From assembly GCA_041666265.1 (NCBI GenBank), contig JBAYHH010000003.1:2020-66019 (forward strand): 64,000 bases of DNA. The letters run 5' to 3'. Position 1 is the stretch's first letter, and every line of letters begins with the position of its first letter. The stretch comes from Candidatus Magasanikiibacteriota bacterium. GTDB taxonomy: Bacteria; Patescibacteriota; Patescibacteriia; Magasanikbacterales; GWA2-37-8. Shown one piece after another: positions 3,188 to 57,551 of this stretch. Under the pieces are notes generated by a model. That model saw only the letters and a program-made list of their open reading frames with translations, was not told the origin of the DNA and did no database searches. The position numbers and the translations under genes were made by a program.

Positions 3188-3424
3188 ATCACCGTTTGTC
3201 TTTCTTGCATTGCCCATTTGTGTGGGCACCGCAAGAGAGGGAAAATTCATTATAACAGTTCCATGCAAAAGTCGAGGGTCCATAGTGACTCGCTGGAGCT
3301 TTGTATCGCATGAGATTTGCGCGTAGTATATACACGCGTAAACCATGTGAAACAACTTTAATTCGGTTGACCTCTGCGCTTTATCGCGCGGGGCGCGCAA
3401 TCGGTTAGAGTATTAACTAATATT

Positions 3425-19580: not shown

Positions 19581-19584
19581 CACA

Positions 19585-19717
19585 CTGTCATTCCGAACGA
19601 ATGTGAGGAATCTTTACCCAGTTGTCATCCTGAGCGTTAGCGAAGGATCTTAATCACCTACAATTCACCTGTCATTCTGAGCGAAGCCCGACCTTAGTTG
19701 GGCGGAGTCGAAGAATC
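19585..19717 (+). repeat. three family A repeats in the gmd-fcl intergenic spacer
   Basis: tgtcattccgaacgaatgtgaggaatct; tgtcatcctgagcgttagcgaaggatct; tgtcattctgagcgaagcccgaccttagttgggcggagtcgaagaatct. Confidence 0.8.
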
Positions 19718-19725
19718 TTTCGTAT

Positions 19726-28452: not shown

Positions 28453-28456
28453 TTTT

Positions 28457-29530: not shown

Positions 29531-29559
29531 AATTATAGAGCGATAGACTTTTGATGTGT

Positions 29560-30423: not shown

Positions 30424-30425
30424 TT

Positions 30426-31469: not shown

Positions 31470-31482
31470 CCTTGTAAATAAT

Positions 31483-33261: not shown

Positions 33262-34431
33262 ATGTTGTTATACAGCGACAACTTAAAGGAATCGTCCACA
33301 TTGAGAATAAACTCAATCGCCAATCAGAAAAAAAATAATGGTGAAAAAGTATATAATTTTAGTGTTGGCGAACCGGTAATTGAAAATCACGCTCTCATCG
33401 TAGAAGGGGTTTGTAATGCTCTTAAAAGAAATCGTACTCAATATCCGCCTGTTGCCGGCATAAATGAACTTTTGAGATTATGCGCCGACTGGATGAATAC
33501 AAATTATAATTGTTCATATAATTCTCAAGAAACAATGGTAACCTGTGGGGGAAAATATGGAATATTTCTAGCCCTACAAGCATTATTGGATGTCGGCGAT
33601 GAAGTAGTAATTATTTCTCCTTATTGGGTTTCGTATCCCGAAATGATAAAAATTTTTCATGGCATTCCTCGGGTTTACACAACCAAAGAAGAATCTGATT
33701 GGCGGGTGGATGCTATGGAATTACAAAAACTTATTAACAAAAAAACAAAAGCAATTATTATCAATAACGCCTCTAATCCTACCGGACATATTTTTTCCAA
33801 ACAAGAATTGGTTGATATTCTTGAAATGGCACATGATCAAAGTATTTTCGTAATTTCCGACGAGGTTTATAGTGGTTTGGTTTATGAATATAATCAATTT
33901 ATATCGGCCGGAAGTTTTGCTGAGTTTAAAGATAAGGTAATTATAATTCAAAGTTGTTCGAAAAATTTTGGCATGACCGGTTGGAGGGTAGGTATGATAT
34001 TTGGGCCGCAGGAAATTGTTAAGTGTCTGGCAGTCATTCAGAGCCAGAGCATAACCAATACTTCCATAGTAAGCCAGTGGGCGGCAATTACAGCTATTCA
34101 GAATGCTGATACAATTACTGGCGAGGTTAGAAAAATAGTACAAGGTAGAAGAGATGTTTTTGTTAGAGTGTTTAATGAATTATTTTCCGAAAAAATCAAA
34201 GCGCCTCAATCTTCCCTGTATTGTTTTGTGTCATTGAAAAAAATGGGAGTTTTCGGAAAAAATGCGGATGAGTTTTCTGCAGATTTAATTGAACAAGCGA
34301 ATATTGCCTTGACATCTGGTGGTGGCTTTGGTGACGATAATTATGTAAGATTTTCTTTCGGTATTAGTGAGGCGGAAATTATTGATGGTTTGCGGGTTCT
34401 AAAAAATTTTACGGAAAATAAAAAATTTTGA
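33262..34431 (+). CDS. class I/II pyridoxal-phosphate aminotransferase (AspC-like fold)
   Basis: NNASNPTGHIF, VISDEVYSGL, and the SCSKNFGMTGWRVGM lysine-containing motif of class I aminotransferases. Confidence 0.8.
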   Translation: MLLYSDNLKESSTLRINSIANQKKNNGEKVYNFSVGEPVIENHALIVEGVCNALKRNRTQYPPVAGINELLRLCADWMNTNYNCSYNSQETMVTCGGKYGIFLALQALLDVGDEVVIISPYWVSYPEMIKIFHGIPRVYTTKEESDWRVDAMELQKLINKKTKAIIINNASNPTGHIFSKQELVDILEMAHDQSIFVISDEVYSGLVYEYNQFISAGSFAEFKDKVIIIQSCSKNFGMTGWRVGMIFGPQEIVKCLAVIQSQSITNTSIVSQWAAITAIQNADTITGEVRKIVQGRRDVFVRVFNELFSEKIKAPQSSLYCFVSLKKMGVFGKNADEFSADLIEQANIALTSGGGFGDDNYVRFSFGISEAEIIDGLRVLKNFTENKKF

Positions 34432-35246
34432 TTATGACTGCCACAGAATTGAAGCGAATTGCTTCAAAAATAAGAATTAATATTTTAAATTTAATTTACA
34501 AAACGAAAAGTTCGCATATCGGATCTTGTTTTTGTATTGTTGATATTCTCGCTGTTTTATATTTTAAAATAATGAATATCAATCCACAGAACATTAAAGA
34601 TGAGAATCGAGATATTTTTATTTTAAGCAAGGGGCACGCGGTAGTGGCTTTATATATTGTTTTGGCCGAAGCCGGTTTTTATGATTTTTCTGTTTTGGAT
34701 AAGTATGCTACTGATGGGTCAAAGTTGGCTGGCCATGTTATTAAAAATAGCCTCCCTGGCATCGAGGTATCGTCTGGGTCTTTGGGGCACGGCCTGTCTA
34801 TGGCTGTGGGCATGGCTTTAGCCGCTAAACTTGATAATAAAAGCAGAAAGATTTTTTGTTTGATGGGGGATGGCGAATGTAATGAAGGTTCGGTGTGGGA
34901 AGCAACTATGTTTGCCGCTCAACACAAGCTCAGCAATCTATATATCATTGTTGACTATAATAATCAACAAGGTATGGGCGAAGCAGATAAGATAATATCT
35001 CAGAATAATCTCGCTGAGAGATTTAGATCTTTTGGTTGCAACTCTATCGATGTTGATGGACATGATATTGGTGCCTTGCTGGGCGCTTTTGGCGGCAAAG
35101 TTGATACTAGGCCAGTGGTTATTGCAGCCAAAACAATAAAAGGAAAAGGCGTAAGTTTTATGGAGAATAATGTTGATTTTCACTATAAAAGCCCAACCGA
35201 TGAGCAGCATGCCTTGGCTTTAAAAGAACTAACAGAATCAGTATGA
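34428..35246 (+). CDS. transketolase, N-terminal (ThDP-binding) subunit
   Basis: GSCFCIVDILAVLYF, SKGHAVVALY, GSLGHGLSMAVGMALA, GDGECNEGSVWEA: split-transketolase N-subunit motifs. Confidence 0.85.
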   Translation: MIMTATELKRIASKIRINILNLIYKTKSSHIGSCFCIVDILAVLYFKIMNINPQNIKDENRDIFILSKGHAVVALYIVLAEAGFYDFSVLDKYATDGSKLAGHVIKNSLPGIEVSSGSLGHGLSMAVGMALAAKLDNKSRKIFCLMGDGECNEGSVWEATMFAAQHKLSNLYIIVDYNNQQGMGEADKIISQNNLAERFRSFGCNSIDVDGHDIGALLGAFGGKVDTRPVVIAAKTIKGKGVSFMENNVDFHYKSPTDEQHALALKELTESV

Positions 35247-36175
35247 GAAATTTAGTCATAAATTATATATTTGAAGAAGCTAAAAAGAATCCGAATATTA
35301 TTTTGATGACGGCTGATTTGGGTTATTCGGTGATGGAGAAGTTTATGCAGGAATTACCTAAACAATTTATCAACACCGGCATTGCCGAACAAAACATGAT
35401 CGGAGTTGCGGCCGGCCTAGCTCTAAGCGGTAAAAAAGTTTTCGTCTATACCATTGCTCCGTTCGCTACTATGAGATGTTTTGAACAGATTAGGGTTGAT
35501 GTGTGTTATCAGAATTTAGATGTAACAATAATAGGGGTGGGAGGGGGTTTGGCTTATGGTACTCTGGGTACCACTCATTACGCCTTAGAGGATTTAGCCA
35601 CCATGAGATCTTTGCCCAACATGAAAGTTATGTGTCCGGCCGATCCCAACGAAGCGGCGCTGGTTGTTAAAAAAGCCATGAAAATCGAAGGTCCGAGTTA
35701 TATTAGATTAAATCGTGGTGGTGAAAAAAATGTTATCGACGATATTGATTATTCTGGTATTGAAATAGTTAGCCCGATAAAAATAATTGAGAATAAGGGA
35801 AGTGTTGTTATTTTTTCCTGTGGCAACATTTTATCAGAAGCTTACAAGGCCGCTAATAATTTGGTTAAAAATAACAAACATGTTTCTCTTTTCAGCCTTC
35901 CGTTTCTAAAACCAGTTGATAAAGAGGCGGTGGTTAATATTTTAAAGGATTACAAAGCTATCTTTACGGTAGAGGAGCATAATATTATTGGTGGTTTAGG
36001 TTCGATAATAGCAGAAATGATTGCCGAAGAAAATTTAAATGTTAAATTGGTGAGGCTGGGCATCGAAGATAAATATTTTGATTTTATTGGCAAACAAGAT
36101 TACATGCGCGATCAAGCTGGTATATCTGCTCAAAAGATTGAACAAAAAATTATAAATAGCTTTTATGAAAGATAA
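35243..36175 (+). CDS. transketolase, C-terminal (pyrimidine-binding) subunit
   Basis: INTGIAEQNMIGVAAGLAL, FVYTIAPFATMRCFEQIR, GGGLAYGTLGTTHYALEDLATMRSLPNMKV. Confidence 0.85.
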   Translation: MRNLVINYIFEEAKKNPNIILMTADLGYSVMEKFMQELPKQFINTGIAEQNMIGVAAGLALSGKKVFVYTIAPFATMRCFEQIRVDVCYQNLDVTIIGVGGGLAYGTLGTTHYALEDLATMRSLPNMKVMCPADPNEAALVVKKAMKIEGPSYIRLNRGGEKNVIDDIDYSGIEIVSPIKIIENKGSVVIFSCGNILSEAYKAANNLVKNNKHVSLFSLPFLKPVDKEAVVNILKDYKAIFTVEEHNIIGGLGSIIAEMIAEENLNVKLVRLGIEDKYFDFIGKQDYMRDQAGISAQKIEQKIINSFYER

Positions 36176-37052
36176 AAAAAAGATATTTTTAACAGGCGGC
36201 GGAGGATTTGTTGGAAAAAATATTCTGGAACAACTTGGTGACAAATATGAATTTATTGCGCCCCGCAGTAGTGAGCTTGATTTGACCAATTCCGATAAAG
36301 TGTTTAGTTTTGTGCAATCTCTGCGACCAGATTTGGTAATACATGCGGCCAAAAAAGGCGGTTCCAGAAAAGATCCAAATTCTACTGATATTTGTTTTAA
36401 AGATTTGCAAATGTTTTTTAATATTGTTCGTAGTCGAAAATATTTTGGTAGGATGATAATGTTTGGTAGCGGAGCCGAGTACGACAAAAGATTTGATATC
36501 GCCGAAGTTAAAGAAGATTTTTTTGAAACTCGCATGCCGGTGGATCAGTACGGTTTTTATAAATATATCTGCGCCCAATATGCCGCCAGAGTTGATTTTA
36601 TCACCCACTTGCGTATTTTTGGGGTATTTGGCAAATATGAGGATTTCACCATTCGTTTTATCTCCAATAATATTTGTCGAGCACTATTTGGCCTACCTAT
36701 CTCCGTTAATCAGGATACTTTTTTTGAATATATTTTCGTAGATGATTTTATTAAGATCTTGGATTATTTTATTAATAATCCCAGTAAAGAAAAATTTTAC
36801 AACATCGGAAATGGTAGTAAATTATCATTATTGGATATTGGTAATAAAATATTAAAAAAATCGGGGAAAGATATTCCAATCCTGCTTAAAAAAACTGGGT
36901 TAAACAAGGAATACACTTGTAATATTGATCGTCTGAAAAATGAAATTCCCGACCTGTCTTTTATATCGATTGATGAAGCGATTGATAAATTATTTTTATA
37001 TTATTCCAAAAATATTAAAAATATTAAAAAAGAAGATATTTTATTTGATTAA
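36165..37052 (+). CDS. NAD(P)-dependent sugar epimerase/reductase (extended SDR)
   Basis: IFLTGGGGFVGKNI Rossmann motif; 295 aa. Confidence 0.65.
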   Translation: MKDKKKIFLTGGGGFVGKNILEQLGDKYEFIAPRSSELDLTNSDKVFSFVQSLRPDLVIHAAKKGGSRKDPNSTDICFKDLQMFFNIVRSRKYFGRMIMFGSGAEYDKRFDIAEVKEDFFETRMPVDQYGFYKYICAQYAARVDFITHLRIFGVFGKYEDFTIRFISNNICRALFGLPISVNQDTFFEYIFVDDFIKILDYFINNPSKEKFYNIGNGSKLSLLDIGNKILKKSGKDIPILLKKTGLNKEYTCNIDRLKNEIPDLSFISIDEAIDKLFLYYSKNIKNIKKEDILFD

Positions 37053-37057
37053 CTAAT

Positions 37058-38368
37058 ATGTCACTAAACGAAAAAATTATTCAGGGCATAAATGAAGAAT
37101 ATCAGAAAATGTTTCCGGTAAAAAAATTTGTTCCGGGAGTTTCGGCCGTGCCGGTTTCCGGAAAAGTATTTGATGAGCGCGAAATTCTGAACGGTGTAGA
37201 AGCGATTCTGGATGGTTGGTGGACCGAAGGTAGATTTAGTGATCAGTTTGAGAGTAAATTAGCGCGTTGGCTTGGGGTTAAAAATGTTACCTTAGTAAAT
37301 TCTGGGTCTTCCGCCAATCTCATTGCTGTATCGGCACTAACCTCCAAAAAATTAGGAGATAGATGTTTGCGACCGGGAGATGAAGTGATTACTGTTGCCG
37401 CTGCTTTTCCCAGCACTGTGAATCCGATTATTCAAAATGGCCTTGTTCCAGTATTTGTTGATGTTGAGCTCGGCCATTATAATGCCTCTATGGACGAAGT
37501 TAGGAAAGCCATCTCCCCCAAGACGAAAGCGATATTTATTGCCCACACTCTCGGTAATCCTTTTGATCTGGATAGTATGGTGCAATTTTGCAAAGAGCAT
37601 CATTTGTGGCTGATTGAAGATAATTGCGATGCCCTTGGGGCGATGTATGGAGATAAGAAAACCGGTACATTTGGTCATATCGCGACCTGCAGTTTTTACC
37701 CCGCGCACCACATAACTTTAGGTGAGGGTGGGGCAGTGTTCACTAGCGACGATGTCTTGGCGCGTATTATTCGTTCTGTGCGCGATTGGGGCAGAGACTG
37801 CCATTGTAAGACCGGTCAAGACAATACTTGTGGTATGCGCTTTGGTTGGCAATTAGGTAAATTACCGTTTGGTTATGACCATAAATATGTTTACTCCGAA
37901 ATCGGCTATAACCTTAAGTTAACAGATATGCAGGCGGCTATCGGTTTGGCTCAGTTAGATAAGCTGGATAATTTTGTCGCTAAACGGCGAAATAATTTTG
38001 ATACACTTTACAATGGTCTAACGAAGTTTGAAAAATATTTTATCTTACCAAAGCATCAGGATAAGGCGAAGCCAAGCTGGTTTGGTTTTCTGTTAACCGT
38101 AAAACCAGACGCCCCGTTTACCAGAGAAGAAATCATCACTCATTTACAGAATGAGCAGGTTGCTACCAGGTATTTATTTGGAGGTAATTTATTGAAACAG
38201 CCGTATTTTGTTGATAACGAGATTAATTATCGAGTAATTGGCGATTTACCAAACACTGATCTTATTATGAATAATACTTTTTGGGTCGGAGTATATCCTG
38301 GTATTACTACGGAGATGGCCGAATATATAGTTTCTTCCATTCAATCATTTTGTCAGAAATATGCCTAA
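37058..38368 (+). CDS. ddhC: CDP-6-deoxy-D-xylo-4-hexulose-3-dehydrase (E1, PMP-dependent, [2Fe-2S])
   Basis: DegT/DnrJ/EryC1 fold with ILDGWWTEGRF. The active-site Lys is replaced by His (SFYPAHHIT), plus a C-x-C-x7-C cysteine motif (DCHCKTGQDNTC), both characteristic of E1 rather than aminotransferases. 436 aa. Confidence 0.85.
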   Translation: MSLNEKIIQGINEEYQKMFPVKKFVPGVSAVPVSGKVFDEREILNGVEAILDGWWTEGRFSDQFESKLARWLGVKNVTLVNSGSSANLIAVSALTSKKLGDRCLRPGDEVITVAAAFPSTVNPIIQNGLVPVFVDVELGHYNASMDEVRKAISPKTKAIFIAHTLGNPFDLDSMVQFCKEHHLWLIEDNCDALGAMYGDKKTGTFGHIATCSFYPAHHITLGEGGAVFTSDDVLARIIRSVRDWGRDCHCKTGQDNTCGMRFGWQLGKLPFGYDHKYVYSEIGYNLKLTDMQAAIGLAQLDKLDNFVAKRRNNFDTLYNGLTKFEKYFILPKHQDKAKPSWFGFLLTVKPDAPFTREEIITHLQNEQVATRYLFGGNLLKQPYFVDNEINYRVIGDLPNTDLIMNNTFWVGVYPGITTEMAEYIVSSIQSFCQKYA

Positions 38369-39260: not shown

Positions 39261-40277
39261 ATGAAATATTTAATCACCGGTGGTTGTGGTTTCCTTGGGT
39301 CAAATTTGGCGCAACAAGTCATAAACAGGGGAGAGGAACTAATAATTTTAGATAATTTATCTCGTTTTGGTTCCGAAGAAAATTTATTATGGTTGCGGAG
39401 TTTGGGTCAATTCAAATTTATAAAGGCAGACATTAGAAATGTTGGCGATGTTGAGCGGATAATTAAAGACGAAAAACCGGATGTAGTATTTCATTTGGCT
39501 GGTCAGGTGGCCATGACCAATTCAATTGCAGATCCCAGAAAAGACTTTGAAACAAATGCCGGTGGCACTTTTAATTTATTAGATTCTGTCAGAAAATTTT
39601 CACCAGATTCGATTGTGATATACTCCTCGACCAATAAAGTTTATGGTGATTTGGAGCGGTTAGAATATTTGGAAACAAACAAACGCTACATCACACCCCA
39701 ATATCCCAATGGCTTACCGGAGTCTACTCCGCTCAGTTTTTCTTCGCCCTACGGATGTTCAAAAGGTTCCGCGGACCAGTATATGTTAGATTTTCACCGT
39801 GTTTACGGTTTAAGGACAATAGTATTTCGGCATTCCTCCATGTATGGTGGTAGGCAATTTCCAACTTATGATCAAGGCTGGATTGGTTGGTTTTGCGAAC
39901 AGGCTTTAAAAACAAAGCAGGGGAGTTTGTCAGAGTCGTTCACTATATCTGGTAATGGTAAGCAGGTGAGAGATGTTTTGCACGCCGAGGATATGGTTAA
40001 TTTGTATTTTTTGGCGGCAGAAAAAGCCGAATCTATTACCGGTGAAGTTTTTAATATCGGCGGCGGCGCGCAGAATAGCCTATCTTTATTGGAGCTTTTT
40101 GACATTTTAGAAGATGAATTAATAGTAAAATTAAGTTACCGACAGTTACCACATAGAGAAAGCGATCAAAAAGTCTTTATAGCCGATATCAATAAAGCCG
40201 GTAGATTAATTGGCTGGCAGCCAAAGGTAAACGCTCGACAAGGGATACAAAAAATGATAGAATGGATCAATCAATAA
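39261..40277 (+). CDS. CDP-paratose/tyvelose 2-epimerase homolog
   Basis: [105 protein letters not shown]: block-by-block match to RfbE/Tyv. Confidence 0.85.
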
Positions 40278-40984
40278 GAATGAAATTTATGGAAAATAAA
40301 GAATTGAGCATCATAATCCCGGCGTATTTAGAAGAAGAAAACCTTAGAATAATTCTGCCGCGTCTTAATGCTATTCTTCAAGAAATTGGTGATAATTGCG
40401 AAATTCTGGTGGTGGATACTATGGAAAAGATGGATAATACCAAAATGGTTTGCGAAGAATATGGGGCTACTTATATCAACAGGATAGGCGGTAATGATTA
40501 CGGAGACGCCATCAGAACCGGTATCAGCCGTGCCAGCGGGCAATATACAATTTTTATGGACGCAGACGGGTCTCATGACCCAGAATTTATAAAGAATTTG
40601 TACAATATCAAAGATAATTACGATGTAGTGATAGCGTCAAGATATATAGCCGGTGGGAATACTGATAATAGTAAATTGTTGATACTAATGAGTTTGGTTG
40701 TCAATGTTGCTTATTCTTTAATATTAAATATTAAGTGCAAGGATATCTCTAATAGTTTTAAATTATATAAGACGGATGATTTAAGAGATTTAAGGTTGAT
40801 GTGCAATAATTTTGATATTGTCGAAGAAATTTTGTTTAAATTGAAAAAGAAAAAGCACAATCTGCGCATAAAAGAATTGCCATTTCTTTTCAAAAAGAGA
40901 ATATTCGGTCATACTAAGAGAAATTTATTTGTGTTTATGCTTTCTTATATCGTCACAATAGTTAAGTTAAGATTTTCTAAGTAA
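40262..40984 (+). CDS. family 2 glycosyltransferase (DPM1/GtrB-like)
   Basis: [14 protein letters not shown]...ILVVD...[10 protein letters not shown]. Confidence 0.7.
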
Positions 40985-41000: not shown

Positions 41001-42257
41001 ATGAACAGTGGGATAATAGAAATTTTACAAAAATTAACTAAGCCAATTTTTTTGTTATATGCCATTATCGCTACTTTCTCCGTAGCCAATTTTCCGGCTG
41101 TAAAATTTGCTCAATTTTTTGGAATTAGCCAAGATGACTCTATAATATTGCGTGGTTTTATTTTTTTTATTGCCATTATAATATTATTTTATTTTTCCTT
41201 CAAAAATATTAACAGTCTAAAATCTTATCTATCACGAGATGTCTTTTTTCGTTCAGCCATAATATTTTTAGCATTATCGGCGCTGGTCTCTACTTTGCGC
41301 GTCATGTTTATGGGCGATGTTTATGCGCACATTGCCATATCACCATTTGGCCAAGATACCGGATTTTTTTATCGTAGGATTTTAGAGCCAGCCTTAGCGT
41401 ATTTTTTGCAGTTTAAGGGTCCATTTTTATATACTATTTTGCATTTTCTAATAACATACTCATGTATTTACATGATTATCTTATGGCTTGAAAAAAAGCT
41501 ATTGGTGAAGTTAAAAATTTGGCAACTGGTAAGTATTATGACCGCCGGCATGATGATTATGCAGTTTCAATCTCCGGGATATCCAGATCAGATAATATTG
41601 CTGTTATGTTTGTTGTCAATGTTTATTCCAATGGATAAATACAGCAGAATAAGCTTGCTGTCATTAATGTTTTTGTCTCACGAATCCGCTGCATTATTTT
41701 TGGGATTTGTTTTCATTTGGTTTTATTTTCCCAAGGAAGAGCGAAAATTTTACGTGCCGATAGTCGCGTTTAATTATTTTTTATGGCTGGCCAATTATAA
41801 TTTTAGTTTTGTGGGATTATTTTTAGGTCATTTGACGCTGGGCAACGACAATGCGCTGGGTATTCTTTTAAAAAATATAAAATTGGCGATATTGTCCGTA
41901 TTTTTTGCCTACAAATTTTTATGGCTATTTGTTTTATCCGGCCTATATTATTGTATAAAAAATAAAGACAATAAATTATTTTGGCAGATAGCTGTCATGG
42001 TTTTTGCGCCTTTAATATTGGTTGTCGTTCCGGATACTTCGCGTGTTGTGGCTTGGGGCTATGTTGGTGTTTTTTTAGCTATTACTTATTCTTACAAGTA
42101 TCTGCGCAGCCGAGCGTTTAATCTGATTTTGACAGTCAACCTACTATTGCCCAGTGTAGCAGTCGGAATAAGTACTGGCGGCGCCGTTTCTTATCCCGGT
42201 TTATATGGTTTAGTCATTCATTTATTTAAGTTATTTGTTAAAAATTACCTAATGTAA
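41001..42257 (+). CDS. hypothetical polytopic membrane protein (candidate polymerase/GT-C)
   Basis: About 10-12 hydrophobic segments and no soluble-domain motifs. Confidence 0.45.
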   Translation: MNSGIIEILQKLTKPIFLLYAIIATFSVANFPAVKFAQFFGISQDDSIILRGFIFFIAIIILFYFSFKNINSLKSYLSRDVFFRSAIIFLALSALVSTLRVMFMGDVYAHIAISPFGQDTGFFYRRILEPALAYFLQFKGPFLYTILHFLITYSCIYMIILWLEKKLLVKLKIWQLVSIMTAGMMIMQFQSPGYPDQIILLLCLLSMFIPMDKYSRISLLSLMFLSHESAALFLGFVFIWFYFPKEERKFYVPIVAFNYFLWLANYNFSFVGLFLGHLTLGNDNALGILLKNIKLAILSVFFAYKFLWLFVLSGLYYCIKNKDNKLFWQIAVMVFAPLILVVVPDTSRVVAWGYVGVFLAITYSYKYLRSRAFNLILTVNLLLPSVAVGISTGGAVSYPGLYGLVIHLFKLFVKNYLM

Positions 42258-42273
42258 AGTTAAATGATCTGGT

Positions 42274-44241
42274 ATGGTGAACAAAAGAAATGTTTATTTG
42301 TGTCAGGTAGGCAATAAGTACGGAGATAATGTTTTTTTACCGTATTCTACAGGTGTGATTATTAGTTATTGTCTTTCTATCGAACAAATAAAGGAAAATT
42401 TTGAATTTAAAGATAATTTGTTTCTAAAAGAAAATATTGAAGATGTGATAAAAAGGTTGGACAATCCGGCAGTTTTTGGTTTTTCTTCCTATATCTGGAA
42501 TTTTGAATATAATAAAAGTTTAGCCAAGCAAATAAAGACTAAATTTCCCGAATGCCTAATTGTATTTGGTGGCCATCATGTTCCATTTTTTTCGGAAGGT
42601 TTTTTTGTCGACCATGAATATATAGACATCTTGGTTCATGGCGATGGGGAATTTATTTTTTCGGAGATTTTATTAGAATTATTGTCGCCAAAACCGGATT
42701 TTACTAAAGTCAAAAATATTAGCATTAATGTTGGTGGAAAAACTTTAAAAATGGAGATGGATCGGTATAAGATAGATATTAATCAAATTCCTTCCCCATA
42801 TCTTAATGGAGTTTTTGATGAAATAATTAAGTTGCCATATTCTTTTACCGCCAGCATAGAGACTAATCGCGGCTGTCCTTATGGATGTGCGTATTGCGAT
42901 TGGGGATCACCATTAACAAGTTGCAAAAGTATCATCCCTTTTGACAAAGAAAGGGTGGACAATGAAATTGAATGGTTTGGTAAGAATAAAATAGAATATG
43001 TTATGGGTTGTGATTCTAATTTTGGAATATTGCCCAGAGACAATAAATTTATAGACAAATTCATTGAAGTCAAAAATCAATATGGTTTTCCGCGTAAATT
43101 TAGAGTAGCTTATGCCAAAAATAGTAATCAGGCAATTTTTGAAATGAACAGAAAGCTCAATGAAAGTAAGATGTGCAAGGGGGTAACACTGTCATTCCAG
43201 AGTTTGTATAATGAAACTCTGAAAGCAATCGGCAGAATTAATTTGCGCTTAGAGAATTTCAAAGAACTTTTACAGCAGTATAACAATGAAGGCATACCCA
43301 CTTATACCGAAATAATATTAGGTTTGCCCAACGAAACCTATGATACTTTTTGTGAAGGTCTAAATATTCTATTGGAAAACGGACAGCATAGCTCCATTAA
43401 TGTTTATAATTGCGAGGTTTTTCCCAACTCGATGATGGGCGATACTAAATACAAGGAGTTTTACGGCATCAAATCGGTCCGTATTCCAGTTGTTTTGTCT
43501 CATTCTTTGCCAGATATCAACGAAATTCGCGAGTATGATGAAATAGTGATTGGAACCAACACCATGTCGATTGACGAGTGGAAAGAATCTTGTATTTTTT
43601 CTTGGGCCATCCAATGTTTTCATTGTTTGGGTCTGACACAGTATATATCTATTTTTGCCCGCAATGAACATAATATTACCTACTCACAATTTTACAGGGA
43701 TTTAATTGATTATGGCAGGAATAACCAGGGCTCTATAATTGGTCGCGAATTGAGTGTTGTATCTAAAATTATAGATGGTGTTATCGGTGGTAATAGTTGG
43801 GAATTTGTAATTGATAAATTTGGGGAAATAAGTTGGACTATCGAAGAAGGATCTTTTCTGAACATTGTTGTGGGTAAAAAAGAATTTTATGATGAATTAA
43901 AAGAGTATTTATTATCATATCTAGATAAGGACGAATCTGGCAAAATTTTAGATTTGATAAATTATTCATCCCAAATGGTGATTGATCCTTTTTGCAAACA
44001 AATTATGGAATTGGATTTGAGTTATGATTTTAATCGGTATTTTAACGAGTTTTATAGGGGTACCGATAAGCCGGTGTTAACAAGTCGCAAGAATAAGCTT
44101 ATTTTTTCAGGGATTGAAGAATTTGGCGGAGATTTACCCGGTTATGCTAGAGAAATTATTTGGTACGGTAGAAAAGGCGGAAGATTCTTCCATGGTCAAA
44201 ATAAGATTAGCACCAAATATAGTGATCAATCACCAAATTAA
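42274..44241 (+). CDS. cobalamin-binding radical SAM enzyme (class B radical SAM, methyltransferase-like)
   Basis: N-terminal B12-binding-like domain followed by a CxxxCxxC motif (RGCPYGCAYCDWG). 655 aa. Confidence 0.75.
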   Translation: MVNKRNVYLCQVGNKYGDNVFLPYSTGVIISYCLSIEQIKENFEFKDNLFLKENIEDVIKRLDNPAVFGFSSYIWNFEYNKSLAKQIKTKFPECLIVFGGHHVPFFSEGFFVDHEYIDILVHGDGEFIFSEILLELLSPKPDFTKVKNISINVGGKTLKMEMDRYKIDINQIPSPYLNGVFDEIIKLPYSFTASIETNRGCPYGCAYCDWGSPLTSCKSIIPFDKERVDNEIEWFGKNKIEYVMGCDSNFGILPRDNKFIDKFIEVKNQYGFPRKFRVAYAKNSNQAIFEMNRKLNESKMCKGVTLSFQSLYNETLKAIGRINLRLENFKELLQQYNNEGIPTYTEIILGLPNETYDTFCEGLNILLENGQHSSINVYNCEVFPNSMMGDTKYKEFYGIKSVRIPVVLSHSLPDINEIREYDEIVIGTNTMSIDEWKESCIFSWAIQCFHCLGLTQYISIFARNEHNITYSQFYRDLIDYGRNNQGSIIGRELSVVSKIIDGVIGGNSWEFVIDKFGEISWTIEEGSFLNIVVGKKEFYDELKEYLLSYLDKDESGKILDLINYSSQMVIDPFCKQIMELDLSYDFNRYFNEFYRGTDKPVLTSRKNKLIFSGIEEFGGDLPGYAREIIWYGRKGGRFFHGQNKISTKYSDQSPN

Positions 44242-44252
44242 TATCTAATCTC

Positions 44253-45197
44253 ATGAATATGGAAAAGAAGAAAATTGATATACTTGTACCGTGTTATAAC
44301 GAAGTGCAGAATATTGGCGAGTTATACCTAGAAGTTAAAAAAGTGATAGGTAATTTTGTTAATTATCACTTTGAGTTTTTGTTTATAGATAACGCCTCAA
44401 CCGATGGCACCGATATTTTATTAAGGAAGATGGCGTCAGAGGATAAGCAAATTAAAGTTATATTAAACAGCCGTAATTTTGGCTGTATCAGATCACCTTA
44501 TTATGGTTTGTTACAAACCAACGCCGATGCCGTGATTATGATGGCGGCCGATTTTCAAGAGCCGCCAGAACTTATTCCTGAATTTATAAAAAGATGGGAG
44601 GAAGGAAGTCAGATGGTGATTGGTATAAAAAATAAAAGCAAGGAAAGTAAATTGATGTTTTTTCTCCGTCAGGTGTATTATTTTTTGATAAAAAAATTCT
44701 CCGAAGTAGAGCAGGTTTCCAATTTTACCAATTTCGGCCTGTATGACAAATCGTTTATAGATATTTTGCGAAATTTAGAGGAGTATTCTCCTTATTTTAG
44801 AGGATTGGTATGCGAGTTTGGTCTTAAGCGCTCCGAGGTATTTTATGTTCAGCCAGTTAGAAAACACGGTAAAAGCAGTAATAATTTTTATACTCTCTAT
44901 GATATGGCCATGAATGGTTTTGTAAATCATTCAAAATTACCTTTGCGTTTGGCAAGTTTAATCGGTTTTTTGTGTTCTTTTGTCAGTTTGTTGGTTGCGA
45001 TTGTGTATTTTTTTTACAAATTGCTATTTTGGAATGAATTTCAACTCGGTCTAGCCCCACTGGTAATTGGCATATTCTTTTTTTCCGCGGTTCAGTTATT
45101 TTTTATTGGTATTGTTGGTGAATATGTCGGAGCCATTTATACGCAAGTTAAAAAGCGCCCTTTGGTGACAGAAAGAGAGAGAATAAATTTTAATTAG
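44253..45197 (+). CDS. polyprenyl-phosphate glycosyltransferase (GtrB/ArnC-like GT2 with C-terminal TM helices)
   Basis: IDILVPCYNE, DNASTDGT, DADFQEPPE, plus two C-terminal TM helices. Confidence 0.8.
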   Translation: MNMEKKKIDILVPCYNEVQNIGELYLEVKKVIGNFVNYHFEFLFIDNASTDGTDILLRKMASEDKQIKVILNSRNFGCIRSPYYGLLQTNADAVIMMAADFQEPPELIPEFIKRWEEGSQMVIGIKNKSKESKLMFFLRQVYYFLIKKFSEVEQVSNFTNFGLYDKSFIDILRNLEEYSPYFRGLVCEFGLKRSEVFYVQPVRKHGKSSNNFYTLYDMAMNGFVNHSKLPLRLASLIGFLCSFVSLLVAIVYFFYKLLFWNEFQLGLAPLVIGIFFFSAVQLFFIGIVGEYVGAIYTQVKKRPLVTERERINFN

Positions 45198-45206
45198 AGA
45201 TAATGT

Positions 45207-47957
45207 ATGATTGATTTTTTAAAGAAAAATTTTTTAGCCATAATATTATCGTCACTTTTTGTTTTTGTCGTTATCTGGGCAGGGAACACCATATCAGTGA
45301 TTACCTGTCGCGGGGTTCTTGAGCCACTCACCATTAAAATAGATGGTTTAGACGAATATAGCCTTTCTTCTGTTAAGGTTTTGGCCATCCTCTCGCGCGC
45401 CGGCAATACTATAAATTTAGTTAAGGTGCCGGAGCACACGGGAGAATGGAATAATTATGGCCAAACATTCATAAAAAAGATAGTGCTTGGTTTAAAAAGC
45501 GAGCATTTGGATAAACTAAAACAAATAACGATCAGTCTGGGGTACAAGAATTTTATTTTTAGTCGTGATCAGTTTTTAGCCGAGTGGACTAAAAATAGTA
45601 ATCAAGAAGATAATTTTTCTTTAGCAAGTAATTTATATGATAAGGGAGGAAACCATAATTACCTGGTATATGAGGCGCCAGAACAAGTAAAGGCCGCACC
45701 ACTAAACATCCCTTTTTCACCCACTATTTTTTCCAGTATAAATTTTGGTGGTAGTGGCAAGCTGATTACTCAGCCATTGATAGCCAGTATTAAATCATTT
45801 ATTTTGGTAGAGATTGTAATGTTTGTTTTTTGCTTTATTCTACTCTATCTTCAAAGGAAAAATGATGGCGAGGTTAATGGCGGAGAAGATGATATACACA
45901 AGCGCCAGTTCATTATTTTTGGTTTGAGCATTGTCGTCGTTTTGTTGTTTTTGTTTTTATTTGATATTTTATTAGCACATTTTTATCAGCCAGATTTATC
46001 TCAAATATTGAAAGGTGCTTCTGGAATTTATCGAGACTTCATGTTGTCTAGTTTTGTGCCCAAACCAACGGAGCGAGCGCAATTTGTCCTCAGCGTATTA
46101 CTAAGTCCAATCTTGTTATTTTGCTCTTATAAATTAATAAATAAATACATTATCAAATTGAACGAAGGTATAATTAGGCGTCTGTATTATGTTTTAAGTA
46201 TCATTTTTCCTTTGGCAATTTTTGCCGTTGCTTATATTGGATTAGCCGTTAGTAATTTTCTTTACATAAAAGATAGTTATTTCTTTAATGGAATTGGCGA
46301 GTATTTATATGTTATTTTAGCGTTTCCGATTGGGGCTTACTTTGTTTATTCATCGAAAATGGAAAATAATAAAATAATTAAATTATTATTTTATTTATTT
46401 TATAGTTTGTTAATCTTGGTGATATTTTTTATCAATATTTTTGCCTTAAATGATGTTGTTTTGACCACCAAACTGTCATCTGCCCCCCACTTTAATCCGG
46501 TATTAAACCCAATAACGCAGGTAATAGTTGGCAAAACCATGCTGGTCGATCTGACTGGGCAATACGGGCTTTCGCCAATTTTTTTATCAGGTGTTTTTAA
46601 GTTGATAAATTTTAGTGTTCTATCATTTACTTCACTGATGGGTTTATTGTTGGCGCTAAGTTATTTTTTCATTTTTGTTTTTCTTCGGAGATTGATCAAG
46701 AGCAATGTTATTTTATTGTTAGGTTTTTCAACAGTGGTTTTTTATTTCTTCCAAAACGGTACTAATCCGAGTCCGTATTTTCAATATTGGCCAATTAGAA
46801 TTTTTTTTCCGTGTTTGATTTTGTTTCTAGCTTCTTTTTATATTAAAAATAAAAGTAAACTTCTTTATTTAGCGATATCTTTGGCCAGCACTCTGTCAAT
46901 TTTATGGAACACCGATTCGGGCGCGGTGGTATTCATTGCGTGGATTGCCACACTTTGTTATTCCGAATTATTTAACGCCAATAGAAAAATAATTGTCAAA
47001 AATATAATTTTGCATATAATTTTTGGGTTATTTGTATTGGGTTTGGTTTTGGCGACATATTCCATTTATGCATTTTTGAGAAGTGGGGCTTTGCCGGACC
47101 TTACTATATTATTGTTGTTTCAGAGGATTTTCTTATTAGGTTTTATGCTGATACCAATGCCGTTTCCGCATGTTTGGTTGTTGGCTGCCACAGCCTTTTT
47201 GGTTGGCCTGTTGATAGCCATTCGCAGTTGGTGCAATCAGGATAAAAGCGATAAGAATATTTTGATTTTCTTACTTTCGGTAATGGGTGTTGGCCTATTT
47301 AGCTATTATGAAGGCCGGTCTCATGATTATACTTTTTTTTGCCCCATGTATATTGTTTTGATTTTGTTAGCTGTTTTGGCAGATTTAATTTTTCAGGAGA
47401 GTATTGCCAACAAAAAATCTTATGGTAGTGGAATTATATTTTTAATGATATTGTTTTTTATTTTTTCTTCCCCATTAAATATAATTGCCAATAGCAAGCA
47501 ATACTATAGTTGGACCAAAAAAGGATTAAGCGCTTTTGTAGATAAAACCGAAACAATATTAACTAGGAATGTTGATTTTATAAAAAAATATACTGTTAGA
47601 GGAGAAAAAATTATTATTTTGTCGGAAAATTCACTAGATGGTTTGTATTATGGGGAGTCGGGCACGCGGTCCGCCTTAGATTTGCCTTCTTCAACTGAGG
47701 TGTTATTAAAACAAGAGGTTGATTATCTATTTAATGTGTTAAGGTGTAACCGTAGTTACAAATTGTTTTTTTATCCGTTTGAATATAGAGAAACAATTAT
47801 GCCCGATAAGTATTATTTTTATGACGAAAGAGTCATTAAAATTATCAAGAATGATTACGCGGTGGTAGAGAAAAGTAGTGACGATATGGTTTTATTGATT
47901 AGAAAAACTAGCGCGTCGAGTACTTGTGATATTCCCAAATTAAAATATCAAATATGA
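45207..47957 (+). CDS. very large polytopic membrane protein, candidate GT-C glycosyltransferase or polymerase
   Basis: 916 aa with more than 20 hydrophobic segments, immediately downstream of the GtrB-like gene. No motif-level assignment. Confidence 0.45.
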   Translation: MIDFLKKNFLAIILSSLFVFVVIWAGNTISVITCRGVLEPLTIKIDGLDEYSLSSVKVLAILSRAGNTINLVKVPEHTGEWNNYGQTFIKKIVLGLKSEHLDKLKQITISLGYKNFIFSRDQFLAEWTKNSNQEDNFSLASNLYDKGGNHNYLVYEAPEQVKAAPLNIPFSPTIFSSINFGGSGKLITQPLIASIKSFILVEIVMFVFCFILLYLQRKNDGEVNGGEDDIHKRQFIIFGLSIVVVLLFLFLFDILLAHFYQPDLSQILKGASGIYRDFMLSSFVPKPTERAQFVLSVLLSPILLFCSYKLINKYIIKLNEGIIRRLYYVLSIIFPLAIFAVAYIGLAVSNFLYIKDSYFFNGIGEYLYVILAFPIGAYFVYSSKMENNKIIKLLFYLFYSLLILVIFFINIFALNDVVLTTKLSSAPHFNPVLNPITQVIVGKTMLVDLTGQYGLSPIFLSGVFKLINFSVLSFTSLMGLLLALSYFFIFVFLRRLIKSNVILLLGFSTVVFYFFQNGTNPSPYFQYWPIRIFFPCLILFLASFYIKNKSKLLYLAISLASTLSILWNTDSGAVVFIAWIATLCYSELFNANRKIIVKNIILHIIFGLFVLGLVLATYSIYAFLRSGALPDLTILLLFQRIFLLGFMLIPMPFPHVWLLAATAFLVGLLIAIRSWCNQDKSDKNILIFLLSVMGVGLFSYYEGRSHDYTFFCPMYIVLILLAVLADLIFQESIANKKSYGSGIIFLMILFFIFSSPLNIIANSKQYYSWTKKGLSAFVDKTETILTRNVDFIKKYTVRGEKIIILSENSLDGLYYGESGTRSALDLPSSTEVLLKQEVDYLFNVLRCNRSYKLFFYPFEYRETIMPDKYYFYDERVIKIIKNDYAVVEKSSDDMVLLIRKTSASSTCDIPKLKYQI

Positions 47958-56699: not shown

Positions 56700-57551
56700 A
56701 TGATTATAACGAAAATTAAGTGCGGGCTCGGCAATCAGATGTTTCAGTATGCGTTGGGTAGGCGTCTGGCGCTGGACTGGAAAGACGAACTAAAGGTTGA
56801 TTTATCTTGGTTCGATAATATTCAAGTTGGCGACATACCCAGGGAGTTGGAGATCGACGATTTTAATATTGTTTTAAAAGAAGCTACTGAGTCGGAGATT
56901 GCCAAATCATCGCCGTATTTTTTTTCGAGGACAGTCGATAAAATCCGCGGATGTATAAACAGAAATCATTTTTATCATTTCTATCCACAGATTTTAAAAA
57001 AGAAAAAGAACATCTATTTAGATGGCTATTTTCAAAGTTATAAATATTTTGAATCAATCAGGCATGTATTATTAGCGGAATTTATTTTAAAAAGTGGTTA
57101 TCACCAAAAAGTTGATGAAATAAAAGTGGCAATTGAGAGTGTTGATCAATCTGTGGCCATGCATATTCGTCGCGGTGATTACGCTACTATACGAAAAGGA
57201 TATCACGGGTTGTGTGATTTGTCTTATTATCAAAAAGCCTTGGCGATGATAAAAAGTCATTACCCGAATATTACATTATTTATTTTTTCGGATGATATTG
57301 AGTGGGCAAAAAGTAATTTAAAATACGACAGTCCAATGGTGTTTGTCTCACAACCAGAATTATGTCCCGCAGAAGAAATGTGGTTGATGAGTCTGTGTAA
57401 ACACCACATTATTGCTAACAGCACATATAGTTGGTGGTCGGCGTGGCTCAATCAAAATCCAGAAAAGATTGTCATTGCTCCCAAGCGCTGGATACGGGCA
57501 GCTGACATCAACACCGAAGATTTAATTCCGAGTAATTGGCTGCAAATATAA
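56700..57551 (+). CDS. alpha-1,2-fucosyltransferase (GT11 family)
   Basis: CGLGNQMFQYALGRRLA, the GT11 hallmark; 283 aa. Confidence 0.8.
   Translation: MIITKIKCGLGNQMFQYALGRRLALDWKDELKVDLSWFDNIQVGDIPRELEIDDFNIVLKEATESEIAKSSPYFFSRTVDKIRGCINRNHFYHFYPQILKKKKNIYLDGYFQSYKYFESIRHVLLAEFILKSGYHQKVDEIKVAIESVDQSVAMHIRRGDYATIRKGYHGLCDLSYYQKALAMIKSHYPNITLFIFSDDIEWAKSNLKYDSPMVFVSQPELCPAEEMWLMSLCKHHIIANSTYSWWSAWLNQNPEKIVIAPKRWIRAADINTEDLIPSNWLQI

Follow-up and report, generated by a model that had tools for sequence, protein, structure and literature searches.

To our knowledge, the characterised TokK-type enzymes (TokK, ThnK, CysS, and KedN5) all tailor antibiotics, TokK and ThnK by alkylating C6 of carbapenems and CysS and KedN5 by iterative C-methylation of aryl methoxy groups. 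The wider class B of radical SAM enzymes also carries out ring contractions, cyclisations and C-S bond formation, and GenK and GenD1 set a precedent for C-methylation of sugar carbons in aminoglycosides, although their substrates are free pseudo-oligosaccharides of secondary metabolism. We know of no described three-component glycosylation system in which a radical SAM enzyme takes part. Both TokK and CysS methylate iteratively to build side chains, and their substrates are pantetheinyl-linked. In TokK, Trp76 sits beneath the corrin, Trp215 is an active-site tryptophan and Arg280 anchors the substrate, and among characterised methylases the Trp76/Trp215 pair is common only to TokK, ThnK, and CysS, being absent from GenK, Fom3, and GenD1 (TokK paper). 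For lipid-linked sugars, a GT2 glycosyltransferase and a B12-binding radical SAM enzyme act together in HpnI/HpnJ (PMC13459092).

The gene considered here belongs to a Candidatus Magasanikbacteria (Patescibacteria) MAG and lies within a low-GC glycan locus of about 40 kb, all on one strand. In the window, by which we mean the whole 64,000-nucleotide stretch that was analysed, it is a complete ORF of 655 amino acids at 42274..44241 on the + strand (as are all features given below), starts with ATG, and is separated from its flanking genes by 16 nt and 11 nt. Judged by its sequence and its predicted structure, the product is a three-domain class B radical SAM enzyme of the TokK/ThnK/CysS type. 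Its N-terminal Rossmann-type cobalamin-binding domain (about residues 1–170, 42274..42783; delimited by Pfam and the TokK alignment) includes the PF02310 B12-binding match (residues 53–132, nt 42430-42669), which is a marginal pass with 33.4 bits against a cutoff of 32.1 (E 4.3e-8). The radical SAM core follows, with PF04055 Radical_SAM matching residues 196–361 (42859..43356) at 47.5 bits against a cutoff of 29.5 (E 2.8e-12). Within it, the motif R-G-C201-P-Y-G-C205-A-Y-C208 is read directly from the sequence; its CxxxCxxC stretch CPYGCAYC (42874..42897), the predicted [4Fe-4S] site, lines up by its cysteines with the TokK cluster motif CPYSCSFC, and the three cysteines do not vary across 31 aligned homologues. 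The original prediction of this motif behind a cobalamin-binding domain, with both Pfam models above threshold, is therefore borne out. The third part is a TokK-type helical domain at the C-terminus (about residues 430–655, 43561..44238), recognised from the HMM alignment, the structural match and the secondary structure of the model; the corresponding domain of TokK contributes to its substrate channel. Pfam returned neither a SPASM nor a twitch domain at E <= 1, so that a SPASM maturase without a B12-binding domain, which had been named as an outcome speaking against the prediction, was rejected on the presence of the B12-binding domain, the absence of SPASM and the helical, TokK-like C-terminus.

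The match to TokK is far above chance, because phmmer aligns residues 18–589 with the sequence of the TokK crystal structure at E = 5.2e-110 and the family profile alignment, which reaches TokK residue 610, gives E = 1.2e-165; the phmmer match to CysS has E = 8e-53. A fold search with the AlphaFold2 model (pLDDT 90.5, pTM 0.90) retrieved TokK (7KDX/7KDY) with TM 0.88–0.89 over ~685 alignment columns, i.e., at full length, followed by CysS with TM 0.74 and by TsrM and OxsB with ~0.5, and every structure matched at E <= 1e-5 was a radical SAM enzyme. This full-length agreement in sequence and structure with cobalamin-bound TokK strongly backs the assignment to class B. Beyond the shared layout, in which a radical SAM barrel stands between the cobalamin-binding Rossmann domain and a large helical domain at the C-terminus, the protein keeps CxxxCxxC and, by the TokK alignment, the equivalents of Trp76 (W75, nt 42496-42498), Trp215 (W210, nt 42901-42903), and Arg280 (R277, nt 43102-43104). 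W75 is kept in ~99–100% of each clade compared, the W75 and W210 equivalents together are ~93–100% conserved in all clades, and R277 is invariant within the clade of the query and its sister clade.

However, identity to TokK is 35%, and the TokK substrate contacts Tyr410 and Asn515, which touch pantetheine and carbapenam, are replaced by V407 and S508. With these replacements, no beta-lactam genes in the window and a clade of its own, found in glycan loci of uncultured bacteria, an orthologue of TokK or ThnK acting as carbapenem C6 alkylase was rejected. The C-terminal 96 residues alone gave only chance matches against PDB sequences, and the profile alignment ends before Tyr652, which with Arg280, Tyr410 and Asn515 makes up the carbapenam/pantetheine-binding residues of TokK. 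CysS (PDB 9N1B) and KedN5 belong to the same subfamily and share the Trp pair, but CysS is only 27% identical to the query and has Trp at the Arg280 position, and the context here is without polyketide or NRPS genes. Among NCBIfam models KedN5 (NF033712) scores highest, with 275.6 bits; since this falls far short of the 700 required and the match spans only residues 50–403 (model positions 49–400 of 624), membership of that family was discarded as well.

Comparison with other radical SAM enzymes narrows the earlier placement as GenK/Fom3/TsrM-like, of which class B stands and TsrM falls (TIGR04428 21.1 bits against a cutoff of 500, TM ~0.5, 15% identity), the nearest relatives being TokK, ThnK, and CysS. 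GenK, GenD1, and Fom3 are set apart by description only, namely by the Trp76/Trp215 pair that they lack according to the TokK paper and that the query has. Orthologues of HpnJ (TIGR03471 45.8 bits against a cutoff of 577.6) and of BchE were likewise considered and rejected in the NCBIfam search. A pseudogene or assembly artefact is ruled out, because the ORF is full length and the identical protein is encoded on two independent contigs, one of 117 kb from ENA and one of 5.1 kb from JGI from another sample.

As predicted, the surroundings are those of a glycan locus. A single + strand block at ~19.7–59.4 kb encodes sugar-nucleotide enzymes, GT2, GT4, and GT11 glycosyltransferases, a Wzx-like flippase, a Wzy_C protein and methyl- and carbamoyl-transferases. 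At its head stand Gmd (18525-19580; NCBIfam gmd 573.9 bits, cutoff 415) and Fcl, a putative GDP-L-fucose synthase (19726-20679; NCBIfam 491.6 bits, just below the cutoff of 500), together spanning 18525..20679, and a GT11 family (fucosyltransferase-type) glycosyltransferase is found further along at 56700..57551 (Pfam PF01531, 113 bits). A CDP-glucose branch is represented by a glucose-1-phosphate cytidylyltransferase (27664-28452; NCBIfam 278.6 bits, cutoff 300) and a CDP-glucose 4,6-dehydratase (28409-29530; NCBIfam 468.8 bits, cutoff 278). Next comes a C-C bond-forming and deoxygenation cassette at 31483..38368, assigned by Pfam and NCBIfam, with an ALS/YerE-like ThDP enzyme (31483-33261, under every NCBIfam cutoff), a class I/II aminotransferase (33262-34431), a split transketolase (34428-36175), an SDR (36165-37052), and an RfbH-type 3-dehydrase (37058-38368; RfbH 698 bits, cutoff 423). 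DmpF/DmpG-type aldehyde dehydrogenase and aldolase and an Asp-aminotransferase-like protein are also encoded in the locus.

The SAM C-methyltransferase that the original prediction linked with the radical SAM enzyme is real: the ORF at 25435-26760 matches Pfam Methyltransf_13, Methyltransf_14, and Methyltransf_23 and is of the TylC3 type. Such sugar C-methyltransferases also yield C-methyl branched sugars, on NDP-4-keto sugars, but by polar enolate chemistry at an activated carbon beside the keto group. Radical SAM/B12 chemistry would be called for only where the carbon is unactivated, so redundancy between the two enzymes seems unlikely.

The immediate neighbours of the radical SAM gene are, in order, an AglJ-like GT2 two genes upstream, a membrane protein, then, downstream, a PgfS/ArnC-like GT2 and a second membrane protein. 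The first of these (40262..40984; 240 residues, Pfam GT2) is a small GT2 of the AglJ/DPM1/ArnC type and a putative polyprenyl-phosphate hexose synthase, with NCBIfam scores that are all sub-cutoff (AglJ 62 bits, ArnC 45, dolichyl-phosphate hexose transferase 43, PpgS 26). The GT2 directly downstream (44253..45197, 314 residues) is a putative polyprenyl-phosphate glycosyltransferase, with PgfS at 187.7 bits and ArnC at 115.9 bits, both again sub-cutoff; a regular expression written for the DPM1/GtrB motif proved too restrictive and missed even this protein. The upstream membrane protein (41001..42257) is polytopic, 418 residues long and has 12 homologues only, mostly from Magasanikbacteria; its AlphaFold model was unusable (pLDDT 53.6). 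The downstream one (45207..47957) is a large polytopic protein of 916 residues, conserved in locus L001, and may be the transferase partner of the 44253 GT2. Neither matched Pfam or NCBIfam, and neither could be placed as GT-C-like, hhalign against GtrII-like and DUF6056 proteins from Clostridia giving <3% probability. A scan for promoters and terminators around the radical SAM gene came out near shuffled expectation.

This arrangement is reminiscent of three-component systems (GtrA/GtrB/GtrC, ArnC/ArnT, CsbB/GtcA/YfhO, PgfS/PgfM), in that polyprenyl-phosphate-type GT2s and polytopic membrane proteins surround the radical SAM gene in the window and in L001, although the membrane proteins of the window could be assigned to neither GT-C nor other families. 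L001 repeats the gene order of the window and adds a GtrA flippase gene after the PgfS/ArnC-like GT2, and arrays in Clostridia carry GtrII-like and DUF6056 proteins. Across the family, an AglJ/DPM1-like small GT2 lies <=100 nt from a TokK-like radical SAM gene in 45 of the 108 loci (3 of 108 for generic GT2s), which are phylogenetically non-independent and include many from Acutalibacteraceae; the median gap is 4 nt. The pairing occurs in Clostridia, Saccharibacteria and Magasanikbacteria, and its tight form is missing from most of the query's own clade.

That clade is distinct, with 62–78% identity to the query. As the suggested neighbourhood comparison now shows, every member with known context (the window, L001, L003, L005, L006/L090, L088/L091, L113, L114, and L115) sits in a glycan locus. 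A first neighbour count, based on GTDB representatives and probes from the window, seemed negative for sugar genes; the scan of GTDB representatives held no close orthologue (best 44% identity) and was dominated by Clostridia paralogues, and the count became informative once orthologue-level metagenome loci and a dedicated small-GT2 profile were added. The clearest cases are the Gmd-radical SAM-Fcl operons of L005 and L006, with gaps of 1–17 nt, and the same theme recurs in L014; the flanking Gmd and Fcl in L005, L006/L090, and L014 are 63–74% orthologues of those in the window. Gmd is directly upstream of the radical SAM gene in the Clostridia loci L026 and L067, and in L088 a GT10 gene directly follows it. 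GT10 or GT11 genes are near the radical SAM gene in L003, L088/L091, L115, and L112, and GT10, GT11 or GDP-mannose-synthesis genes lie <=10 kb from it in L003, L113, L115, and L112, while no Gmd or Fcl occurs within 10 kb in L113, L114, and L115. The association with GDP-mannose/fucose genes is a recurrence, with enrichment over Patescibacteria glycan loci in general unproven.

Based on these data, we consider it fairly probable that the enzyme is a cobalamin-dependent radical SAM C-methylase acting on a sugar of the surface glycan. The earlier proposal, in which a nucleotide sugar or the polyprenyl-linked glycan is C-methylated or rearranged by radical chemistry, thus gains support as an inference, from orthologues in glycan loci, from the repeated placement inside GDP-6-deoxyhexose operons and from the family-wide pairing with a polyprenyl-phosphate-type GT2. 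By homology to TokK, a reduced [4Fe-4S] cluster on C201/C205/C208 would cleave SAM to a 5'-deoxyadenosyl radical, which would strip a hydrogen from an sp3 carbon of the substrate that is not activated. Methylcobalamin, bound base-off/His-off above W75 in the N-terminal Rossmann domain, would donate its methyl group to the substrate radical so formed, and the cob(II)alamin would be reduced and re-methylated by a second SAM. Repeated reaction on one carbon may occur, as in TokK and CysS. The substrate would be a sugar destined for the cell-surface glycan of the locus, and the likeliest candidate is a GDP-mannose-derived 6-deoxyhexose of the fucose type, although we propose a 6-deoxyhexose in particular only tentatively. 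It might be handled as the GDP-sugar or as a polyprenyl-phosphate-linked monosaccharide made by the AglJ/DPM1-like GT2 (40262-40984). The adjacent membrane proteins would be candidates for flipping the modified sugar and transferring it.

The same enzyme and chemistry could instead serve a yersiniose-like sugar, a CDP-linked 3,6-dideoxy-4-C-branched hexose produced by RfbF/RfbG/RfbH and the ThDP-enzyme/transketolase cassette. The radical SAM enzyme would extend or methylate the two-carbon branch, in analogy to the ethyl and isopropyl groups that carbapenams acquire from TokK. The RfbH/ThDP cassette co-occurs with the radical SAM gene about as often as fucose genes do: RfbH and/or a ThDP enzyme is found <=10 kb away in the window, L001, L003, L005, L006, L112, and L114, and the window's own transketolase-SDR-RfbH block ends 3.9 kb upstream. 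In L003 (73% identity) the order transketolase-SDR-RfbH-radical SAM is conserved within a cassette of RfbF, RfbG, transketolase-N, transketolase-C, SDR, RfbH and, last, the radical SAM gene, and iterative side-chain building by TokK and CysS would suit such a role. Yet there are no RfbH/ThDP-type genes within 10 kb in L088/L091, L113, and L115, in L005 and L006 the radical SAM gene is inside the Gmd/Fcl operon rather than beside RfbH, and the branched-sugar pathway is itself a reconstruction, with the ALS-like enzyme below all NCBIfam cutoffs and an E3-type reductase not identified. We therefore regard this substrate as unlikely.

TokK chemistry is not guaranteed for the query, because identity is only 35% and class B chemistry is diverse, and these two facts also speak for a cobalamin radical SAM enzyme that does not methylate but rearranges a lipid- or nucleotide-linked sugar, by an HpnJ/Cds- or OxsB-like ring contraction or a ThnL-like C-S/C-C coupling. 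HpnI/HpnJ and Cds, with their proposed ring contractions, are the sole described precedents for a GT2 and a B12-binding radical SAM enzyme on a lipid-linked sugar: in HpnI-HpnJ (hopanoid cyclitol ether) and Cds (calditol), a glycosyltransferase builds the lipid-linked sugar and the neighbouring radical SAM enzyme, which in HpnJ binds B12, modifies it on the lipid. Their lipid is a hopanoid or GDGT and not polyprenyl phosphate. However, the HpnJ model scores far below its cutoff, and the three-domain TokK/CysS architecture, much closer in TM than OxsB, is that of iterative methylases, as are the conserved Trp76/Trp215 equivalents, which are tied to the TokK/ThnK/CysS methylases. A rearrangement accordingly seems rather improbable. 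Weaker still is the case for methylation of something other than a sugar, i.e., a small molecule bound to a carrier or an acyl or amino-acid-derived substituent that is put on the glycan later; the position in the locus would then reflect only co-regulation or chance. The pantetheinyl-linked substrates of TokK and CysS, the DmpF/DmpG-type, ALS-like and Asp-aminotransferase-like enzymes of the locus and one relative that adjoins an NRPS (L008) would be in keeping with it, but neither the window nor any locus of the orthologue clade has a carrier protein, NRPS, PKS or pantetheinyl-related gene, and DmpFG and ALS genes, unlike GT2 and sugar-nucleotide genes, are not conserved beside orthologues; we judge it very improbable. 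The TokK-like family is not exclusively glycan-linked, because some relatives at 38–42% identity adjoin NRPS genes (L008) or are in Streptomyces genomes.

The placement in a glycan locus had been called unusual, which holds against characterised biology but not in metagenomic data, where the family's commonest neighbours among the sampled loci are glycan genes rather than natural-product genes; TokK-type machinery is here a regular part of cell-surface glycan loci. It is conceivable, though doubtful, that TokK-like enzymes mark a widespread envelope-glycan step, a B12-dependent and possibly iterative radical C-alkylation of GDP- or polyprenyl-phosphate-linked 6-deoxyhexoses. In a literature search of incomplete coverage, no relevant paper connected cobalamin radical SAM enzymes to GDP-fucose, to Patescibacteria, to surface polysaccharides or to polyprenyl phosphate. 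If C-alkylation holds, it would join the known reactions of envelope sugars and predict new sugar structures, such as C-methyl or chain-extended sugars on Patescibacteria surfaces, e.g., 6-C-methyl-fucose (6,7-dideoxyheptose). It would also offer a testable substrate, a GDP- or polyprenyl-phosphate-linked deoxyhexose, for many class B radical SAM enzymes of "unknown function."

Patescibacteria hosts are thought unable to make cobalamin, and the envelope of these genome-reduced cells would then depend on scavenged, externally supplied B12. The window contained no gene for cobalamin uptake or for a reductant, and scans for tRNAs and for Rfam families, the cobalamin riboswitch among them, found none. 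The conserved pair of AglJ-like GT2 and TokK-like radical SAM enzyme would make a simple two-gene system for heterologous reconstitution. In gut Clostridia, tandem arrays of 3–9 radical SAM paralogues stand behind a coupled AglJ-like GT2, and heavily C-alkylated sugars might be expected from them.

The B12-binding radical SAM (rSAM) gene occupies 42274-44241 on the plus strand and encodes 655 amino acids from an ATG start, exactly as originally predicted, with 16 nt to the gene before it and 11 nt to the gene after. The proposed CxxxCxxC motif is present in the protein (R-G-C201-P-Y-G-C205-A-Y-C208), and both domains expected of such an enzyme exceeded their Pfam cutoffs, PF04055 (Radical_SAM) with 47.5 bits against 29.5 over amino acids 196-361, and PF02310 (B12-binding) with 33.4 bits, barely over 32.1, over amino acids 53-132; a Pfam search of the whole 655 amino acids returned no domain besides these two. 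The class B assignment is independent of the marginal PF02310 score because of the strong sequence matches to TokK and CysS, characterized enzymes of antibiotic tailoring. Searching PDB sequences with phmmer gave E = 5.2e-110 to TokK over amino acids 18-589 (35% identity) and 7.9e-53 to CysS (27% identity), and a 31-sequence family profile matched TokK at 1.2e-165. An AlphaFold2 model built from the 31-sequence alignment (pLDDT 90.5, pTM 0.90) had cobalamin-bound TokK structures as its top Foldseek matches (TM 0.88-0.89, ~685 columns), followed by CysS (TM 0.74), TsrM and OxsB (~0.5), with AprD4 and MiaB lower. An identical protein is on record on two independent contigs. The observation is thus confirmed as real rather than a chance motif, and the protein belongs with TokK, ThnK and CysS among the three-domain class B radical SAM enzymes.

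Belonging to the same structural subfamily as TokK, ThnK and CysS, the rSAM protein can be likened to them in its working by homology. In TokK, Trp76 sits under the corrin, resulting in four-coordinate base-off/His-off cobalamin, Arg280 anchors the substrate carboxylate, and Trp76 together with the active-site Trp215 is common only to TokK, ThnK and CysS among characterized methylases (TokK structure paper). The equivalents of Trp76, Trp215 and Arg280 in the aligned rSAM protein are W75, W210 and R277. Both tryptophans are ~93-100% conserved in every clade of the alignment, while R277 occurs without exception in the query and sister clades and in only 36% of the Clostridia clade. Other TokK substrate contacts are changed (Tyr410 to V407, Asn515 to S508, and Leu383 to C380). 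Because the Trp pair and R277 are kept and these contacts are replaced, the alignment indicates a cofactor and catalytic scaffold that is TokK-like and a substrate pocket that is not.

The best NCBIfam model for the protein was the KedN5 family (275.6 bits, well under the cutoff of 700, and covering the first two domains only). The models for TsrM, HpnJ, BchE, PhpK and others scored 15-55 bits against cutoffs of 250-650. The likeness to TsrM in the original prediction was therefore not upheld, given this score and a fold similarity of TM ~0.5. We also rejected orthology with any characterized member, as the protein fell under the cutoffs for KedN5, TsrM and HpnJ and has neither the full set of substrate residues nor the gene context of TokK.

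The family is very large, with 3233 proteins at E ≤ 1e-20 among the 8000 candidates scored and at least 588 matching stretches in species-representative genomes. Three homologues of 910-1035 amino acids (P0086, P0104 and P0108) carry inserted intein or homing-endonuclease domains (PF14528, PF14890, PF07591). In a neighbor-joining tree, in which TokK and CysS were entered as partial sequences reconstructed from alignments, the query falls in a tight clade (62-78% identity) apart from four other groups: a sister group from Patescibacteria, Saccharibacteria and Proteobacteria (41-48%), TokK and CysS, members from Streptomyces or next to an NRPS, and a very large clade from gut Clostridia.

Neighborhood comparison placed the query clade in a glycan locus in every context visible. 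The closest locus, L001 (78% to the query), is syntenic with the window from RfbH through a 644-aa unknown protein and has an extra GtrA gene. This GtrA-family flippase gene (12925-13332 in L001) precedes a 917-aa membrane protein, and it is missing at the equivalent place in the window (45197-45207), since the gap there between the PgfS/ArnC-like GT2 and the 916-aa membrane protein is only 9 nt. Counted as raw occurrences in the loci compared, Gmd, Fcl and fucosyltransferase contexts recur: the order is Gmd, methyltransferase, DegT, rSAM and Fcl-like in L005 (70%), Wzy, Gmd, rSAM, Fcl-like and Wzx in L006/L090 (62%), and methyltransferase, rSAM, GT10 and GT2 in L088/L091 (75%), while L003 (73%) has RfbF, RfbG, transketolase-N, transketolase-C, SDR, RfbH, rSAM and GT2, with GT10 further on. 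The Gmd and Fcl flanking rSAM genes in other loci are orthologous (63-74%) to the copies in the window, and in two Clostridia loci Gmd lies directly upstream of a TokK-like rSAM gene. L113 (66%) contains three GT2s, rSAM, GT2 and a mannose-1-P guanylyltransferase-like gene, with a PGI/PMI-type gene upstream, and L115 (69%) contains GT2, rSAM, GT2 and SDR, close to genes for GT11, an ABC transporter and a C-methyltransferase resembling TylC3. L114 (67%) is truncated, with a transketolase gene fragment at its edge and two further B12-rSAMs (67-1521 and 3315-4880). Additional, different B12-rSAM genes also occur in L005 (16643-18847) and L115 (15805-17271); the extra B12-rSAM proteins of L005, L114 and L115 include a 734-aa fusion of B12-rSAM and class I methyltransferase domains and BchE/HpnJ-like proteins of ~485-520 amino acids, all under curated cutoffs. 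The window has one B12-rSAM only.

In the window, the rSAM gene lies within a one-strand block of ~40 kb (19700-59400) with 33-38% GC against 42-50% in the flanks; this low-GC island is consistent with a surface-glycan region that is horizontally exchanged and varies between strains. GC skew is positive across nearly the whole window, from ~6 kb, except at 12-14 kb. The block encodes Gmd and Fcl, a methyltransferase-GT2 fusion, a Wzx-like flippase, RmlC-like and RmlD-like enzymes, RfbF, RfbG and RfbH of the CDP-glucose pathway, a split transketolase, several SDRs, seven further GT2-family genes, GT11 and GT4, and a Wzy_C protein is encoded just upstream. The C-methyltransferase claimed in the original prediction is indeed in the block and is of the conventional TylC3 type. 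Given a carbamoyltransferase (54152-55861), an FkbM-type methyltransferase (51459-52184) and a class I methyltransferase fragment (56151-56663), the glycan probably bears O-carbamoyl and O-methyl groups as well. The split transketolase (N and C halves), SDR and RfbH-type 3-dehydrase share their order between the window (34428-38368) and L003 (6042-9983), where the cassette leads directly into the rSAM gene, and suggest a pathway to a 3,6-dideoxy C-branched hexose. Odd for a sugar locus is the set at 29551-34431. A DmpF/DmpG-type pair over NCBIfam cutoffs comes first, with an acetylating acetaldehyde dehydrogenase scoring 395.6 bits and a 4-hydroxy-2-oxovalerate aldolase scoring 389.3 bits, and behind it are a ThDP enzyme of the ALS/YerE-like kind and a protein resembling aspartate aminotransferases; a C2 or C3 building block could come from this set, whether for a branched sugar or for a non-sugar substituent.

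Around the rSAM gene the order is an AglJ/DPM1-like small GT2 (40262), a 418-aa membrane protein, rSAM, a PgfS/ArnC-like GT2 (44253) and the 916-aa membrane protein; neither membrane protein matched a family in Pfam, NCBIfam or hhalign comparisons to membrane proteins of the Clostridia loci. Small GT2s beside rSAMs in Clostridia, Saccharibacteria and the window have their best matches, under curated cutoffs, to AglJ, DPhHxTase, PpgS and ArnC, which are models of polyprenyl- or dolichyl-phosphate hexose transferases (NCBIfam). Among 108 non-redundant loci, the AglJ/DPM1-like subtype profile placed such a GT2 within 100 nt of a TokK-like rSAM gene in 45 loci and within 10 kb in 61 (median gap 4 nt), vs. 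three and 12 loci, respectively, for a profile of the window's other, generic GT2s; these counts do not represent independent events, since the profile seeds were taken from the counted loci and many loci come from related MAGs. The pairing is lineage-structured. In 40 of 83 Clostridia-type loci the two genes share a strand and are coupled; in four loci of Saccharibacteria/Patescibacteria they are neighbors with divergent orientation; and in the window and L001 they are 1.27-1.29 kb apart with a membrane gene in between. The remaining query-clade members lack the pairing.

Gut and rumen Clostridia MAGs (Acutalibacteraceae, Oscillospiraceae) carry tandem arrays of three to ~9 TokK-like rSAM paralogues (L019, L050, L098, L106, L065, L028 and ~60 others), with 35-41% identity to the query; a small AglJ-like GT2, translationally coupled, usually stands first in the array. 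In L050 the GT2 overlaps the start of the first rSAM gene, and GtrII-like and DUF6056 polytopic membrane proteins are present; across the arrays, GtrII-like proteins recur (in 31 loci), as do DUF6056 proteins and a separate ~490-aa BchE/HpnJ-like B12-rSAM. Such arrays suggest that a single lipid-linked sugar is modified by radical chemistry several times or iteratively, and no characterization of them was found in the literature searched.

Taken together, we consider the rSAM protein to be probably a cobalamin-dependent radical SAM C-methylase of a glycan sugar. By homology with TokK, it would cleave SAM reductively and take a hydrogen from an unactivated sp3 carbon of the substrate, to which methylcobalamin would give its methyl group, and a second SAM would re-methylate cob(I)alamin, the cycle possibly being repeated on the same carbon; from the gene context, the substrate would be a sugar of the locus's glycan. 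Because the block already has a TylC3-type C-methyltransferase for activated positions, a radical enzyme would be sensible only for an unactivated carbon, e.g., the C6 methyl of a 6-deoxyhexose, although a 6-deoxyhexose specifically can be proposed only tentatively. A CDP-3,6-dideoxy branched sugar, to which the cassette order in L003 points, is an unlikely substrate. Rearrangement of a lipid-linked sugar without methylation, as in HpnJ and Cds, is quite unlikely, as both the architecture shared with TokK and CysS and the conserved Trp pair argue against it, and action on a non-sugar substituent or carrier-bound substrate is very unlikely in a locus with no carrier-protein, NRPS or PKS genes.

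For C-methylation of a glycan sugar, two carriers are plausible, a GDP-sugar, which fits the Gmd-rSAM-Fcl operons, and a polyprenyl-phosphate monosaccharide, which agrees with the gene order in the window and with the pairing to an AglJ-like GT2; both signals occur together in locus L014. In TokK, the channel between the three domains accommodates a long pantetheinyl tail, and an anionic group is anchored on Arg280 (TokK structure paper); by analogy one might speculate that R277 holds a phosphate.

The enzyme class itself is ordinary. In aminoglycoside pathways, GenK and GenD1 are known class B enzymes that C-methylate sugars. The same pairing logic of a GT2 and a B12-rSAM on a lipid-linked sugar as proposed here has been described for HpnI/HpnJ (PMC13459092). 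By contrast, we found no report, in the literature searched, of a TokK-type enzyme in envelope glycan assembly or of such an enzyme tightly paired with a GT2 of the polyprenyl-phosphate type; this glycan context is consistent, widespread and wholly uncharacterized, and the function of the rSAM protein is what we infer from it and from homology.

Genes flanking the locus encode giant surface proteins as well as an ECF sigma factor accompanied by a DUF5667 protein. Two giant ORFs lie upstream, one (3425-7102, 1225 aa) with no Pfam match and one (12172-16062, 1296 aa) with a lamin-tail domain and a right-handed beta-helix. No cobalamin-supply features for the rSAM protein were found within the 64-kb window. 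An MTA phosphorylase is encoded at 9960-10730, 31.5 kb upstream of the rSAM gene; members of this family can also salvage 5'-deoxyadenosine, an inhibitory by-product of radical SAM turnover.
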